DNA of 64,000 nt, taken from contig JAZQOV010000011.1 in NCBI GenBank assembly GCA_045628045.1, positions 1 through 64,000 on the forward strand, in the 5' to 3' direction. Positions 21,443-64,000 of the stretch are shown here, piece after piece; position 1 is the first letter of the stretch; every line of letters starts with the position of its first letter. Origin of the DNA: Bacilli bacterium. Lineage in GTDB: Bacteria; Bacillota_I; Bacilli_A; RFN20; CAG-826. A model generated the notes under the pieces. The model saw nothing but the letters and a program-made list of their open reading frames with translations, had not been told where the DNA came from and did not search any database. The position numbers and the translations under genes are program-made.

Positions 21443-21470
21443 GCATCCTTAAAAGGATGCATTTTCTTTT
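21443..21470 (+). terminator. Intrinsic terminator
   Basis: gcatcctt-aa-aaggatgc followed by a T-rich tail. Confidence 0.75.
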
Positions 21471-21534
21471 TAAAAATGGATTTTTAGAAAATAATTAATT
21501 GAATCTTTGCATCAAAATTAGTTATAATATTTTT

Positions 21535-21609
21535 ACCACAATACACCTTATGGTGTGATTAGTGATTAAGATCGGTGTTTCGACCGCTTAGTGCGGTGCC
21601 GGTCTTTTT
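21535..21609 (+). ncRNA. Putative small RNA, orphan copy
   Basis: Own promoter; hairpin ACACC-UUAU-GGUGU; terminator AAGAUCGG..CCGGUCUUUUU; near-identical to 21804-21879. Confidence 0.6.
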
Positions 21610-21669
21610 CTTTCCGGATAAAGTTTATATATTGTATTTTACATAATATTATTCTTTGTTATAATAATG

Positions 21670-21734
21670 ATGCGGTTGCGATAAAAGGCTTATGCCTCGC
21701 AGTGCAATTAGGGCACCTTAATGGCAGCCTTTTT
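21670..21734 (+). ncRNA. Putative second-type small RNA
   Basis: TTTACA(21638)-16-TATAAT(21660) with TG extension; GC-rich structured transcript (AGGC-UUAU-GCCU hairpin, GGUUGC/GCAGCC closing stem) ending in a U-run. Confidence 0.5.
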
Positions 21735-21803
21735 CTTTTTAAAAATAATATTTTAGAAAATAATGAATTGAATTTTTACATCAAAATTAGTTATAATATT
21801 TTT

Positions 21804-21879
21804 ACCACAATACACCTTATGGTGTGATTAGTGATAAAGATCGGTGTTTCGACCGCTTAGCGCGGTGCCGGTCTTTTTT
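21804..21879 (+). ncRNA. Putative cis-antisense small RNA overlapping the 3' end of the 21828-22223 ORF
   Basis: Promoter 21768/21792, two hairpins and a U-run; overlaps the last ~17 codons of the minus-strand ORF. Confidence 0.65.
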
Positions 21880-22223
21880 CTTTCTAGATAAAGTTCATAT
21901 ATTGTATCTGACTTAAGAACATCCTTTTTGGACAACCCCCTTTTTATGTACTTCTCGCTATAGGTTTTCGCAGGGTAACTCCTAATTCTTTGTATAAAAT
22001 AACTCTGCAACGAATTATTTACTTTAAATGGTTTACATAACTTCGTATTTGCCTTGCCTTCCGAATAAGGCTTTGAAGTCAAAAAAACACTTGATAAGAT
22101 TAGCCCATCTTTTGTAGCTATAATTGCTTTAATGTGGCCATAATGTCCATGTTTATAATTATAACGAATTTGCCCAATTCTATAATTTCTTCCGATATTG
22201 ATTTTAATAATTTGTTTGCACAT
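21828..22223 (-). CDS. Basic 131 aa protein, possibly a MazF/PemK/ToxN-fold RNase
   Basis: AAGGAG SD and extended -10; motif order GQIRY..VFLTSK..QSYF.QRIRSY..GLSKKD resembles MazF GDIW..VPLTS..S.I..DQIR..G.LS..D (by eye only). Confidence 0.5.
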   Translation of the reverse strand: MCKQIIKINIGRNYRIGQIRYNYKHGHYGHIKAIIATKDGLILSSVFLTSKPYSEGKANTKLCKPFKVNNSLQSYFIQRIRSYPAKTYSEKYIKRGLSKKDVLKSDTIYELYLERKKTGTALSGRNTDLYH

Positions 22224-22326: not shown

Positions 22327-22385
22327 CAACATTTTTAGAAAACAATGAATTGAATTTTTTCATCAAAATTAGTTATAATATTTTT

Positions 22386-22510
22386 ACCATAAAGAGTACG
22401 GCGAGGGACAAGCCCTATGACCCGTCAGCAACCTGCGTATAGCAAGGTGCTAAAGCTTGACTGATGGTTGTTTTTATTTTATAAGCCGTCAGTATCGATG
22501 GCTTTTAATT
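22386..22510 (+). promoter_or_regulatory. SAM riboswitch (SAM-I clan, P4-less / SAM-I/IV-like) with terminator expression platform
   Basis: P1 ACCAU/AUGGU, AAGAG, P2 with GAGGGA..CCC..UGA kink-turn, P3 AGCAACC..GGUGCU, pseudoknot CAAGC/GCUUG; downstream terminator aagccgtc..gatggctt-tt whose 5' arm can alternatively pair with ACUGAUGGUU. Confidence 0.85.
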
Positions 22511-58524: not shown

Positions 58525-61395
58525 ATGGAATTCCTGGATATTTTTAAATTTATAATAGCTGCAATCATTCCAATTCTTTTAAGCGTTGGCTGTATTTATC
58601 TTGAGAAAACAAGAAGATTTTCTAAGTTAAACAAATACGTTAAAGCTTTAATATTTGGAGTTATTTTTGGCATCAGTTCAATTAGTGGAACTTTACTTGG
58701 TTTAAAACTACCAAATGGCGCAATCATCAACGTGCGTGATGCCTCTCCTATTATATGTGGTCTTCTTTTTGGTGGACCATCAGGAATTTTGGCTGGCTTA
58801 ATTGGCGGCGGCTTTAGAGCACTTACTCCTCTTTGGGAACCATCGACAGCTTACACAGTTGTTGCATGTTCTATTTCAACCGCAATGGCTGGTGTATTTA
58901 CTGTGTTTGTTAGACATTTCATCTTTGATGATAAAAAAGGTACTTGGTACTATGGATTCTTCCTTGGCGTATTAGTTGAAGACTTCCATATGATGATGTC
59001 TGTGCTTACACACACAGAAGATATTGTTAAGGTTTATAACTCAGTTATAAAAGTATGTACAGTTCCAATGGTATTAGCAAATTCATTAGCGGTAATGATT
59101 GCAATTATTATTGTTAATTTAATAAATCACGAGAAAATATTTGAAAAAGAAGTCAGAACTCATATTTCTACAAAGGTTCAGGTTTCTTTGATTCTTTCTC
59201 TTGTTGTTTCTTATGTTGCAACTGCGTTATTTACGAATATGTCTGTTAATAAAGTTGTTCAAACAAATATTAAAGGTCAATGTGAAAACGCTATAAGCGA
59301 TGTTATTAATAATGTTGATGACACAATCAACAATGTTATGAGTGACAAACTTGATGAAGTCGCAATAAAACTTCTTGATGAAGTAAAACCATTAGAAAAA
59401 GATAGGCTTTTACGTAAAGAAGCATTAGTAAGTATTCTTAATGATTTCTCTGGTGAGATTTCTGAAATCAATATTGTTGGCACTGATGGTTTTGTTCATT
59501 ATTCCACAGATCAATACGATTTTATGGAAGACGGAAGTGGACCATTTAACATGGAAATTGGTGACCAATCAAGAGAATTTAATGTCTTACTTAAAGAAGG
59601 CGAAACAAACTATTTTATCCAGGAATTCCGCGAGATTTCTGCGTATGATGGCGGAAAATCAATGAAATATGCTGGCTATAGATTTGATGCTGAAGACATT
59701 GAATCAGACTTCTGTTATTTCCAAATTGGTTTAGATGCTGCAAGGTATCACGAACTACTTCAAGACTATGTTGATGAATGTGCTAAATTTAGACACATTG
59801 GTGAAGAAGGATTCGTTGTAGTTAGCGATGAAAATGGTGCAATTGTTTCAACAATCGTTGATTGTCCATTTACTGAAACAATTGATGTAAATAAGTTCCT
59901 AAACGATGGTTACGATAAATATTACACTTACTCTAAATTTGTTGAAGGTTACTACATTGTTGCTTTTGCAGGCGCTGAAGAAAGTGATTTAGCATCCGTA
60001 ATTTCATTCACTGCAATTTCTCTTGCTGAAGTTTTTGTTTATTTGCTTTTATATTGCGTTTTATATATAGCAGTTAAACGTAGAATCGTTGATAAAATTA
60101 AAACTATAGGCTTAAGCCTAAATGAAATTTCTTCAGGAAACTTAGATGTTGTTGTTAATCAAAGAGACAGTTATGAATTTGATTCATTAAGTAACGACAT
60201 TAATAAAACTGTTGGAACTCTTAAAGAGTTCATTGCGAAAGAAGCTAATAAGAATGCTGAAGAGTTAGCATTTGCTAAAAACATTCAATATTCTGTTCTT
60301 CCAACCGCTTTCCCAATGAATGATAGATTTGAAATTTATGCTTCTATGTCAACCGCCAAGACTGTTGGTGGTGACTTCTATGATTTCTATTTTATAGATA
60401 GAGAGCATGTATTAATTGAAATCGCTGATGTTAGTGGAAAAGGTATTCCTGCCGCTATGTTCATGATGAGAGCAAAATCTGTTCTTAAATCACTTATAGA
60501 ATCAGGTATTGGAATTGAAAATGCCTTTATTGAAGCAAATAGAAAACTTTGTCAAGGTAATGATACTCAAACATTTATTACGGTTTGGGGTGGAATTATC
60601 GATTTAACTACAGGACATGTTGACTTTGTCAACGCTGGTCATAATCCTCCAATTATTTGTAGAGATGGCAAATTTGAGTACTTACATAGTAAACCAGGCT
60701 TTGTTTTAGCAGGTTTAGAAGGATTTAAATACGTTAAGCAAAGCTTTGACATTAAGCCAGGTGATATGATTTATCTTTATACTGATGGTGTTACTGAAGC
60801 TAATAACGAAAAACATGAACTTTATGGAGAAGAAAGACTTCTTAAAGCAATTGGAGATAAAACATATACTTCTAAATCTATTTGTGAAACTGTCTCAAAG
60901 AGTTTGAAGAAGTTTGTGAATGATGCAGAACAATCTGATGATATTACAATGCTCGCATTTAAATTCTATGATGTTGAGCTCGCTAATATTAAAGTTGTGG
61001 ATGCAGACTTAAAGAATTTACCAGAAATCATAGATTATATCGATGATTTGCTTGATAAAAATAACGCCACATTATCTGCAAAATCACAAATCGATGTAGC
61101 AGTGGATGAGATATTCTCAAATATCGCATTCTACGCTTATCCAGAAGGCCAAGTTGGTAAGGTCAAAGTTTCAGTCATTATGTCTAAAGACAATGAAGAA
61201 ATGACCATTATCTTTGAAGATAAAGGAAAAACATATAACCCACTTGAGAAAGAAGATCCAGATACTTCACTATCTCTAGAAGAGAAGTCTATTGGTGGAC
61301 TAGGTATATTTATTGTTAAAAAGACAATGGATTCATTAGAATACGATAACGTTAATGGTCATAACGTATTAACCCTCAGAAAGAAGATTCATTAG
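58525..61395 (+). CDS. Membrane sensor: LytS-type 5TM + extracellular domain + HAMP + SpoIIE/PP2C phosphatase + RsbW-like HATPase
   Basis: IINVRD..GGP.SG.LAGLIGGGFR; VGGDFYD, IADVSGKG, NAGHNPP, YTDGVTEA, QSDDIT; DEIFSNIAFYAY, DKGKTYNP, GGLGIF. Confidence 0.9.
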   Translation: MEFLDIFKFIIAAIIPILLSVGCIYLEKTRRFSKLNKYVKALIFGVIFGISSISGTLLGLKLPNGAIINVRDASPIICGLLFGGPSGILAGLIGGGFRALTPLWEPSTAYTVVACSISTAMAGVFTVFVRHFIFDDKKGTWYYGFFLGVLVEDFHMMMSVLTHTEDIVKVYNSVIKVCTVPMVLANSLAVMIAIIIVNLINHEKIFEKEVRTHISTKVQVSLILSLVVSYVATALFTNMSVNKVVQTNIKGQCENAISDVINNVDDTINNVMSDKLDEVAIKLLDEVKPLEKDRLLRKEALVSILNDFSGEISEINIVGTDGFVHYSTDQYDFMEDGSGPFNMEIGDQSREFNVLLKEGETNYFIQEFREISAYDGGKSMKYAGYRFDAEDIESDFCYFQIGLDAARYHELLQDYVDECAKFRHIGEEGFVVVSDENGAIVSTIVDCPFTETIDVNKFLNDGYDKYYTYSKFVEGYYIVAFAGAEESDLASVISFTAISLAEVFVYLLLYCVLYIAVKRRIVDKIKTIGLSLNEISSGNLDVVVNQRDSYEFDSLSNDINKTVGTLKEFIAKEANKNAEELAFAKNIQYSVLPTAFPMNDRFEIYASMSTAKTVGGDFYDFYFIDREHVLIEIADVSGKGIPAAMFMMRAKSVLKSLIESGIGIENAFIEANRKLCQGNDTQTFITVWGGIIDLTTGHVDFVNAGHNPPIICRDGKFEYLHSKPGFVLAGLEGFKYVKQSFDIKPGDMIYLYTDGVTEANNEKHELYGEERLLKAIGDKTYTSKSICETVSKSLKKFVNDAEQSDDITMLAFKFYDVELANIKVVDADLKNLPEIIDYIDDLLDKNNATLSAKSQIDVAVDEIFSNIAFYAYPEGQVGKVKVSVIMSKDNEEMTIIFEDKGKTYNPLEKEDPDTSLSLEEKSIGGLGIFIVKKTMDSLEYDNVNGHNVLTLRKKIH

Positions 61396-62236: not shown

Positions 62237-62731
62237 ATGATTATTTCAATTTTAAGTGTTGACAAAAACTATGGAATTGGGAAAAATAATTCCCTTCTTT
62301 TCCATCTAAAAAAAGACATGGAATTCTTCAGAAAGACAACTGAAGGTCATATGGTTTTTATGGGTGAAAATACTTTACTTTCTTTCCCTGGAAGTAAGCC
62401 ACTTAAAAATAGAATCAATGTAGTTCTTAGCAAAGACAAAACTCACAATTACGAAGGTTGTAAGAATGTTCACAATTTCCGAAAATTCACGAGAATTCTC
62501 AGGAAAAATGGCAGAAAACACGATGTTTTTGTAATTGGTGGAGCGTCTATTTATATGCAAACACTTCCTATAGTGGATATGGTATTATTAACCAAAGTTG
62601 ATGCTGATGGACACGCTGATGTCTTCTTTGATAATTTAGATAAAAATCCATCTTTTGAATGTGTTGATCAAGGCACACCAATTATGGATGGAGATTACAA
62701 AATTAGATTCACAACTTATATTCGAAAATAA
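62237..62731 (+). CDS. folA: Dihydrofolate reductase
   Basis: GIGKNN, DMEFFR, MGENT, PLKNRINVVLS, VIGGASIY; follows thyA. Confidence 0.95.
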   Translation: MIISILSVDKNYGIGKNNSLLFHLKKDMEFFRKTTEGHMVFMGENTLLSFPGSKPLKNRINVVLSKDKTHNYEGCKNVHNFRKFTRILRKNGRKHDVFVIGGASIYMQTLPIVDMVLLTKVDADGHADVFFDNLDKNPSFECVDQGTPIMDGDYKIRFTTYIRK

Positions 62732-62779
62732 TCTTTAGTATTGTATTGCAATTTAACGAGAATTATTTGTAATATTGTT

Positions 62780-62836
62780 ATCAGGCGAGATGGGTCTGAC
62801 AAAAGGAAAGAGATTGGCTGCTACCAATCTCTTTTT
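62780..62836 (+). ncRNA. Putative antitoxin small RNA, variant/orphan copy
   Basis: TTGCAA(62746)-18-TAATAT(62770); UCAG..CUGA hairpin, then terminator aaagagattgg-ctgcta-ccaatctcttttt. Confidence 0.6.
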
Positions 62837-62922
62837 CATACTTTGGAATACAGACTGTAGAATTAATCATGAATTTTGCAAAAATGCATTGAAATAATTA
62901 TGAATTTAGATATAATAATAGT

Positions 62923-62977
62923 ATCAGGCGTGGGATCTGACAAAAGGAAAGAGATTGGTTGCATCCAATCTCTTTTT
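62923..62977 (+). ncRNA. Putative cognate antitoxin small RNA of a type I TA locus
   Basis: TTGAAA(62889)-16-TATAAT(62911); 5' UCAGGCGUGGG; bidirectional terminator aaagagattgg-ttgcat-ccaatctcttt. Confidence 0.7.
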
Positions 62978-63011
62978 CATAGTTTGGAATACAGGCGTGG
63001 GTTTCTAACCC

Positions 63012-63077
63012 TTAATCATTGATTTTAATAATCAGTAAAATAAGAGCTAGAATAAGAAGGTACTCCACTAAGGACAT
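63012..63077 (-). CDS. Small hydrophobic peptide, putative type I toxin MSLVEYLLILALILLIIKIND (or 18 aa from GTG 63068)
   Basis: GGGAAGGGAGG SD; single TM-like run; convergent with the small RNA; structured 5' UTR. Confidence 0.7.
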   Translation of the reverse strand: MSLVEYLLILALILLIIKIND

Positions 63078-63357
63078 CCTCCCTTCCCAAACGCCTGAAT
63101 GCAAACTCCGACGTTCGAAGACCGCCATCATATTCCTTTCTATGAAGTCAAATGAATTATTGACCCCACACTAACTAATTAGAGAAAAATAAGCAAAACT
63201 GCTAAAAAATATTTTTAATATATTAATATATTACAATTTAGCACTTTTTCTGAGACTCAAAAAAGTACGGAAAAAAACTTGCTTTTATACTTAAAAAGGA
63301 ATAATTTAACATAAATGTTTAATTACATTGCTTTACTCTAGAAAAGAGGTAGAAGTT

Positions 63358-64000
63358 ATGAAGAAAAGTAGATTTTATACTTTATTAGCTCTATCAAGTA
63401 TCCTTACTTTAGGAACTGCTTTTGCAGCCACCTCAATTAATGATGAAACTAATAGAAACCAAGGCATTAACGAATTAAATGCAGAGTCTTTGTCAGAGGA
63501 TAAACTTTATGTTGCTCCTGCTGCAGTTTCTCCATATACATACACTACTTCTCCAACTAATGAACCGTGGTATAAAAATAGCCACGAATACCATTCTACA
63601 GCAACTGGATCAGATGGGTTTGATTATCAAAGAAACCAAAAAACTACAATGTATGATTTCATGAATGTTTCTGAAACATGGAACTCATATCGTGGTGAAA
63701 ATGTTAAAGTAGCCGTTATTGACACAGGTTGTTATACATCACATGAAGACTTTAACGGCACAAATATAAAAACAATCTCTAAAAACATGGTGTCAGGAAC
63801 AACTGGATTATCAGCTGTAAATGATGCTCATGGACATGGAACAACTTCTGCAGCAACAATTGCGGCCGCTGTTAATGGTAAAGGCGGCACCGGAATTGCA
63901 CCAAATGTAGAATTAATAGTTTTGAAATGCGTTGATGCTAACAATGCTTTTAGTAATACTGCAATTAACAATGCTCTTCAATATTGTATTGATAATGATG
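63358..64000 (+). CDS. Secreted S8 subtilase (runs off the window end; absent from the ORF track)
   Basis: GAGG SD, signal peptide, VAVIDTG (Asp), HGHGT (His), GIAPNVELIVLK. Confidence 0.9.
   Translation, partial: MKKSRFYTLLALSSILTLGTAFAATSINDETNRNQGINELNAESLSEDKLYVAPAAVSPYTYTTSPTNEPWYKNSHEYHSTATGSDGFDYQRNQKTTMYDFMNVSETWNSYRGENVKVAVIDTGCYTSHEDFNGTNIKTISKNMVSGTTGLSAVNDAHGHGTTSAATIAAAVNGKGGTGIAPNVELIVLKCVDANNAFSNTAINNALQYCIDND

Follow-up and report, generated by a model that had tools for sequence, protein, structure and literature searches.

A toxin-less RNA unit stacked on a predicted type I toxin-antitoxin module of gut Bacilli is probably the scar of an older module

Among type I toxin-antitoxin systems already described, the par locus of E. 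faecalis plasmid pAD1 (RNA I/RNA II, Fst) has a toxin mRNA and a short antitoxin that converge on a terminator in common, an oppositely read direct repeat, a hidden Shine-Dalgarno sequence, a 5' helix and repeats that vary from locus to locus, according to the available text of PMC7472228. In txpA/RatA of Bacillus subtilis, the antitoxin pairs with the 3' part of the toxin mRNA only, away from the start, and in hok/mok/Sok and ldr/ldrX/Rdl an upstream ORF lies over the toxin start, intergenic copies stand in tandem and the 5' and 3' ends of the mRNA pair over long range (both as given in the available part of PMC4147584). The aapA/IsoA systems of H. pylori, here locus II, form a multi-copy chromosomal type I family with loop-set specificity and a copy number that varies among strains; IsoA2 has been conserved in the absence of a functional toxin, ghost copies are known, and the accessible portion of that paper (PMC5416894) proposes no anti-addiction role for IsoA2. 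These traits of par, txpA/RatA, hok, ldr and aapA/IsoA have a seen or predicted likeness in the family described below, the terminator in common being a candidate one. Anti-addiction, the neutralisation of a foreign toxin by an antitoxin, is a stated concept (PMC12548467), and tandem type I loci (PMC2887945, with candidate tandem toxins in its supplements) as well as non-AUG starts and cross-talk between paralogues (PMC8167048) are known, each from the sections of these papers that were at hand. Our literature search, in a collection thin on subscription papers, found no description of the toxin-antitoxin family reported here; it returned nothing pertinent by title and abstract on orphan antitoxins with type I systems and antisense RNA, and none on RFN20 toxin-antitoxin systems.

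The window is the whole 64,000-nucleotide stretch of a Bacilli genome analysed here. A preliminary description had placed a second promoter-plus-RNA unit upstream of a cognate RNA antitoxin near its end, and had read it as a variant antitoxin. The features of this region are as follows.

62237..62731, plus strand: folA (dihydrofolate reductase; Pfam DHFR_1, E 5e-39), last gene of thyA-folA
62746..62773, plus strand: promoter P1 of unit 1 (-35 TTGCAA at 62746-51, 16-nt spacer, -10 TGTAAT)
about 62780..62838, plus strand: unit 1, a predicted toxin-less antitoxin-like RNA (fold z -4.5)
62781-62799, plus strand: 5' hairpin of unit 1 (predicted fold)
62805-62836, plus strand: terminator hairpin of unit 1, with its loop at 62818-62823, then a T run (predicted fold)
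62839..62855, plus strand: remnant of a toxin 3' UTR spacer, by alignment to the unit 2 spacer
62889..62916, plus strand: promoter P2 of the cognate antitoxin (TTGAAA at 62889-94, 16-nt spacer, TATAAT at 62911-16)
about 62923..62979, plus strand: unit 2, the predicted cognate antitoxin RNA (fold z -3.4)
62992..63001, plus strand: CAGGCGTGGG, a direct repeat that brings the first letters of the antitoxin into the toxin 3' UTR; second copy at 62925-62934
63012..63068, minus strand: predicted type I toxin of 18 aa, MEYLLILALILLIIKIND, with a GTG start 9 nt after GGAGG (63078-63082)
63012..63139, minus strand: mok-like upstream ORF (RBS 63134-63139, ATG 63128), in frame with the toxin
63086..63097, minus strand: leader of the toxin mRNA, predicted partner of the direct repeat in a 5'-3' long-range helix

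The second unit is indeed present. Sequence and alignments place the two promoters 143 bp apart and the two RNA bodies 141 bp apart, the difference being a 2-nt indel. The bodies are about 89% alike in the alignment and have in common a 62-nt direct repeat that is 92% identical. Both units fold as a 5' hairpin followed by a terminator hairpin, with z-scores (-4.5 and -3.4) reached by 0 of 200 shuffles each. P2 matches the consensus at 11 of 12 positions in the promoter scan, which does not call P1, whose -10 in the window is mutated (TGTAAT). Neither unit matched Rfam at or above the gathering threshold, with sub-threshold noise in 62600-63400; RNA model R2, built partly from unit 1, scores unit 1 at 86.5 bits. 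That the stems are conserved and the loops differ also stood: of 13 positions in loops the units differ at 6, and of 38 in stems at 1 (Fisher p 0.0006), with the loop letters as quoted. The loop extents had to be corrected: with a 5' stem of 6 bp, less of each unit is loop than had been quoted. The stems themselves have one difference, at 62794 versus 62935.

Unit 2, which the preliminary description took for the cognate RNA antitoxin, is the putative antitoxin in a module of type I, and its best pairing is with its own toxin 3' UTR. The 18-aa predicted toxin is hydrophobic with a charged C-terminus, presumably a membrane peptide, and neither Pfam nor NCBIfam returned anything for it or for the 38-aa in-frame form. 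The CAGGCGTGGG repeat, which occurs in two copies only in the whole genome, is the predicted antitoxin target at 62992..63001. The toxin mRNA is predicted to fold (z -6.2, 0 of 200 shuffles) with its RBS hidden and its leader paired with the 3' UTR, and leader-repeat pairing was also computed across the family modules. The layout is convergent and a terminator is called on both strands, so that the unit 2 terminator is predicted to be common to the toxin mRNA; the toxin promoter was not placed with confidence. Of 14 modules tested, only that of the window has its upstream ORF in frame with the toxin, which predicts a 38-aa extended product.

In the working that we propose, unit 2 RNA would be made towards the toxin mRNA, with the terminator in common, and its 5' end would bind the mRNA at the direct repeat of the 3' UTR, the duplex then being degraded as in txpA/RatA. 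The toxin mRNA would be kept silent by its hidden RBS, weak start codon and 5'-3' helix. Translational blocking at a distance by the antitoxin found no support in opening energies: blocking the 3' UTR raised the cost of opening the toxin start by at most 0.4 kcal/mol in 14 modules, and it made the upstream RBS easier to open in 8 of 13 modules and harder to open in 5. Because the 3' UTR block did not close the toxin start in silico, we infer decay as for txpA/RatA to be the mode of action.

Searches with RNA models built in this analysis showed that the module belongs to a family. They returned at least 15 strong toxin-region matches in 4 of 37 genomes of the genus; the genome searches score part of the candidates only, so module counts are lower bounds. 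The source genome holds 5 complete modules, as an unfiltered HMM scan confirms. The other four lie outside the window, at G000 C11:83100-84400 (L019), where three form a tandem array, and at C2:55400-55700 (L058); each has its own repeat and starts with ATC or ATA. Elsewhere in the order, where the best 11 of 12 non-own matches were taken, we found four further clear modules of the same layout and one tandem neighbour seen in part. An exact 7-18-nt repeat of the module's own antitoxin 5' end was present in 15 of 15 modules, and in 12 of them the strongest pairing of the antitoxin 5' end is with the 3' UTR of the same module, the other 3 favouring a near-identical relative. Toxins are 18-23 aa long in the 14 intact modules and antitoxins about 55-65 nt. 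In 13 of the 14 modules tested, a mok-like upstream RBS with ATG precedes the toxin start by 53-60 nt; the ORF it opens overlaps the toxin out of frame in 11, runs in frame in 1 (the window) and ends early in 1. Seven kinds of toxin start codon occur: ATG, GTG, TTG, CTG, ATC, ATA and ATT.

Wider searches added little. The 12 matches of model R2 inspected in the genus comprised 2 complete modules and 10 ordinary terminators, and 2 of 4 weak R3 matches were inspected, neither of them a module. A toxin-side pattern gave 8 matches in genome contigs (the module of relative G033 and 7 from taxa unrelated by title) and 1 in viral contigs, which is not a module. The 2 matches of an antitoxin-core pattern in metagenomes were both due to chance, an A-type-module pattern had 0 matches in the viral collection, and plasmid and phage BLAST gave short weak matches only (E 0.09 or worse among the matches listed) and no module. 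A module in the relative G008 and one in the relative G017, which occupy different sites, share 98% identity over 279 nt, compared with a background of 90-92%; judged from these sequences, family modules move between species. Beside modules in G008 C2 (L033 1750-2020) and G017 C16 (L045 1230-1300) lie promoter-plus-short-RNA-plus-terminator units of other sequence, and the extra RNA units in G008 lie near TnpB-like and nuclease-like genes. G184, of another genus, carries a type I family that is related and whose antitoxin has one hairpin; it has at least 2 toxin types there and several stacked or decayed units (L091, L099, L101, L103, L105, L106 and L131).

We read unit 1 as the scar of an older family module whose toxin was lost or replaced, with a probability of roughly 60%. 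No toxin follows it, in agreement with the preliminary description: an HMM from 14 toxin regions finds exactly 5 genome-wide, none there. What does follow is a probable trace of one. The stretch at 62839-62853 differs at one position from the toxin 3' UTR spacer of unit 2 and stops where the direct repeat should begin, and in conspecific runs X6, X7 and X9 position 62854 is G and the C at 62855 is kept, which are the first letters of the repeat. Unit 1 thus keeps a toxin-side spacer, which has no role in the RNA, and we count this for the scar.

The promoters speak to the rival view that promoter and antitoxin were simply duplicated in tandem, the older toxin never having been present. P1 and P2, compared with each other, score 14.5, within the range of 10.5-22.5 among promoters of unrelated modules, and P2 is not closer to P1 than to promoters of other species' modules, which argues for two modules rather than one recent duplication. 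The inter-unit spacer is, by alignment, not a copy of the DNA upstream of P1.

Toxin loss is seen directly in relatives. G008 C2 has a toxin with a stop at codon 3 and an intact antitoxin. In G033 C37, at 67 kb, a 5'-deleted toxin lies upstream of a complete module and its antitoxin is broken by an IS. In G033 C25, a solitary antitoxin stands where G017 and G008 hold a complete module, with 358 bp missing and a downstream flank 94-96% identical. This orphan (L017 1460-1540) is 82% identical to the same-site antitoxin of G017, compared with 96% for the downstream flank; its 5' hairpin was therefore replaced or is fast-changing. Decayed toxins in relatives thus show a stop codon, a half deletion and a whole deletion, with the antitoxin left in two of these cases, and an intact toxin without an antitoxin was found at none of the family loci inspected. 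The stacking of orphans, which the preliminary description had suspected to be recurrent, is seen again in G033, where an orphan is stacked on a complete module as in the window, and in G184, where a toxin-less unit is stacked upstream at 3 of 6 toxin loci. One G184 orphan retains the last toxin codons, a complete module of that toxin being present elsewhere in G184; in one G184 remnant the antitoxin is gone together with the toxin 3' end.

The context of unit 1 may explain its persistence. folA ends 15 nt before P1 with no terminator in between, and the unit 1 hairpin is the first terminator downstream of it; all 5 congeneric genomes that were checked have a plain terminator-like hairpin behind folA, and none of them has a module there. 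Losing the antitoxin first would be lethal, so survivors would have the toxin removed and the antitoxin kept. As the only terminator for thyA-folA, the orphan would then be likely to persist, and exchange with the adjacent copy would re-homogenise it repeatedly while its loops drift. Against the scar we count that terminator duty leaves the retention of P1 and of the 5' hairpin unexplained. We infer the scar origin of unit 1 from events at other sites, and its original toxin was not found. Run X1 has extra letters directly after folA, at 62718-62733, and a similar short stretch lies upstream of the G008 C31 module (L061 70-100); the two are possibly copies of a small repeated element.

To follow the locus within the species, the window was compared with 6 conspecific runs, out of 15 listed, from 4 studies; the strain alleles were deduced from difference tables and contig breakpoints, assuming 31-letter graph overlaps, and are not printed sequences. 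Position 62769 reads A in 6 of 6 runs (G62769A), which restores TATAAT, so that the mutated -10 is found in the window only. Five of the 6 runs carry both units, and X1 has a single copy (joint 62778 to 62922), so that a copy-number survey at this locus, one of the checks proposed earlier, yields 1 or 2 copies. Since 9 letters are shared at the joint, the X1 allele can be ascribed to deletion between the repeats. Its single copy adjoins the toxin gene and carries the terminator loop found in unit 1 of the window.

In X2 and X9 the 5' loop of unit 1 equals the cognate loop, and in X3 it is one base from it, both X3 copies having a strain-specific terminator loop. Terminator loops vary between strains and match or nearly match between copies within X2, X3, X7 and X9, and the RNA bodies are identical over 46-64 nt between copies in X2 and X3. 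X7 and one X6 contig likewise have the long loop of the window, but their background is diverged. These alleles suggest that the copies are largely homogenised within strains and that the terminator loop is an allelic polymorphism. Across strains, unit 1 varies at 6 of its 13 loop positions and at 1 of the 38 in its stems; this and the intact -10 in 6 of 6 runs argue that unit 1 is not simply rotting, although its stem conservation is confounded by conversion and terminator duty. Promoter hexamers vary at 1 of 12 positions versus 7 of 22 in the spacers (p 0.21, not significant). For the purifying selection proposed for the orphan, the conserved stems and the -10 of all six runs are ambiguous signs, and the window's own -10 is mutated.

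The leading alternative is an unlikely one: unit 1 would be kept or retuned, through its 5' loop, to neutralise in trans the toxin of a different, mobile family module. That loops set antisense specificity, its starting point, agrees with our prediction that the 5' loop region is the specificity element of the family, and in par the repeat sequence is the presumed specificity setter in the available text of PMC7472228. An exact partner repeat for unit 1 was found neither in the source genome, nor in 400 family genomes, nor in viral contigs, and the patterns of a unit 1 partner and of the G008 repeat each had 0 matches in the viral collection. Pairing energy gave one near match, so that neutralisation of a different toxin allele keeps a candidate target at cognate-level energy and lacks an exact one. 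The first 26 nt of unit 1 pair with the repeat region of G008:C2:24362-24478 through 12 bp, a 2-nt bulge and 5 bp at -28.8 kcal/mol. Cognate pairs range from -21 to -34 kcal/mol and the cognate pair, of the same helix-bulge-helix shape, has -28.2, so that the match has cognate geometry and strength and exceeds that of unit 1 with its neighbour (-22.0). None of 160 natural between-group pairs reached this value, nor did any of 500 randomised loops, 1000 shuffled targets or 3000 genome windows; of 64 loop triplets, the real one alone did. The mobility indicated by the G008-G017 pair and the recurrence of stacked orphans in G033 and at 3 of 6 G184 loci likewise speak for orphan immunity.

Against it, the G008 C2 match was found post hoc among 45 orphan-target pairs (3 orphans by 15 targets), and unit 2 already reaches -19.4 on the same target, so that family resemblance supplies most of the match. 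As a rough estimate, the match would arise by chance with 1-3%; function we put lower still. The target belongs to another species and subfamily, the terminators of unit 1 and the G008 C2 module are unrelated and the gain in whole-molecule cofolding is -0.7. P1 is mutated in the window, the loop is cognate-like in three strains (X3 perhaps being a mutational step on the way to the long loop), and the best partner of the two G033 orphans is their neighbour or the same-site module. Searches of plasmid, phage and viral collections turned up no module of the family. Several supports of the original proposal also fell away. The terminator loop of unit 1 is not specific to it, the same allele sitting in the cognate copy of X1 and X7; the two copies are homogenised in three strains, by the deduced alleles, rather than diversified; the genome holds 1 orphan versus 5 complete modules and does not accumulate them; and toxin decay in relatives accounts for orphans without selection for immunity. 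The broader idea that gut Bacilli keep stacked spent antitoxins as a heritable immunity record against mobile sister modules, the long loop of unit 1 having been retuned to G008-C2-like modules via the 3' repeat alone, is as doubtful as that alternative.

Still less probable is that unit 1 is a backup or dosage copy, kept to add to the antitoxin supply against the neighbouring toxin. Strain by strain the two copies resemble each other, unit 1 remains able to pair with the repeat of the neighbour at -22.0 (0 of 600 shuffles) and it pairs with the neighbour's terminator, with a cofold gain of -19.2 compared with -30.0 for unit 2. This gain varies with the terminator included (-19.2, -14.0, -6.9), and at the last value the neighbour is not the best partner; moreover, X1 manages with one copy, the window's loops and -10 have drifted, and close direct repeats homogenise without selection. 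The local duplication introduced above is the least probable origin, its points in favour (copy number 1 or 2 among strains, identical RNA bodies over 46-64 nt in X2 and X3) being met by promoter regions no more alike than those of unrelated modules, by a spacer not copied from upstream of P1 and by the deletion between repeats that explains the single copy of X1.

A pair of RNAs at 21.5-21.9 kb had been cited as a parallel case of variant-loop antitoxins. This did not hold: the pair is of an unrelated family (no significant R2 match, E 0.32), and the 21.5- and 21.8-kb RNAs are near-identical, with two substitutions and one T between them. Opposite the second are the last codons, at the 3' end, of a conserved minus-strand 131-aa gene at 21.8-22.2 kb, and opposite the first is a broken remnant of these codons. 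From the sequence, the pair appears to repeat the scar pattern, and not loop diversification. The 131-aa gene has two homologs and a weak PemK lead on 16% of one cluster; Pfam and NCBIfam searches gave no family for its protein. The region 21447-22223 thus holds two near-identical promoter-plus-75-nt RNA units with a third, unrelated promoter-RNA unit between them (about 21630-21740). One promoter, 92% identical over 62 nt, recurs at 21480-21541, 21749-21810 and 22331-22392, ahead of the two RNAs and of a SAM riboswitch (22384-22470). This riboswitch, the only Rfam match in the window, stands ahead of an 84-aa gene for which Pfam has no family. When the genome was scanned de novo for a promoter plus two hairpins, the scan returned the five cognate antitoxins, the 21.5- and 21.8-kb RNAs and eight other matches. 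Elsewhere in the window, a 956-aa ORF at 58525-61395, read by eye, presumably combines a membrane domain with a phosphatase-like region and with a C-terminus like that of anti-sigma kinases.

Taken together, the modules make up a predicted type I family of uncultured gut Bacilli that is not yet catalogued. In it a par-like repeat, moved to the 3' UTR, goes together with a mok-like upstream ORF and seven start codons. It supplies 15 natural antitoxin/target sets and a visible decay series, and makes it testable whether addiction forces toxin-first decay and whether orphan RNA antitoxins act as anti-addiction immunity, for which unit 1 and the G008 C2 module are a named candidate pair. If the immunity-record reading were true, an addiction scar would become a programmable anti-addiction RNA.

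Set against known systems, the family is not par/Fst, membership failing on the repeat position, after the stop codon, and on the toxin motif. It has one repeat, in the toxin 3' UTR, whereas par has two (DRa, DRb), over the translation start, as the available text of PMC7472228 gives them. Its 14 translated toxins of 18-23 aa have no PXXXG motif or conserved Trp, an upstream ORF is present, and the two terminator loops of the window show, by eye, no YUNR motif, unlike par. RNase III decay is the likely outcome here as in txpA/RatA (PMC4147584, from the part available); no match to txpA/RatA as a sequence family was found, and much of the predicted pairing comes here from a separate repeat outside the overlap, with an antitoxin of about 55-65 nt. 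Binding of the hok/mok type, at the upstream ORF start, was also rejected: Sok and Rdl bind the 5' leader in the same partial source, whereas the complementarity of the window antitoxin is to the 3' UTR and terminator. In aapA/IsoA the antitoxin lies in the 5' UTR, in the portion of PMC5416894 at hand, and no sequence link to the window family was seen. The H. pylori loci offer a precedent for unit 1, which is probably an orphan of ordinary decay. The anti-addiction cases in the available text of PMC12548467 are whole chromosomal systems or phage-borne decoys; for unit 1 such a function is a candidate one.
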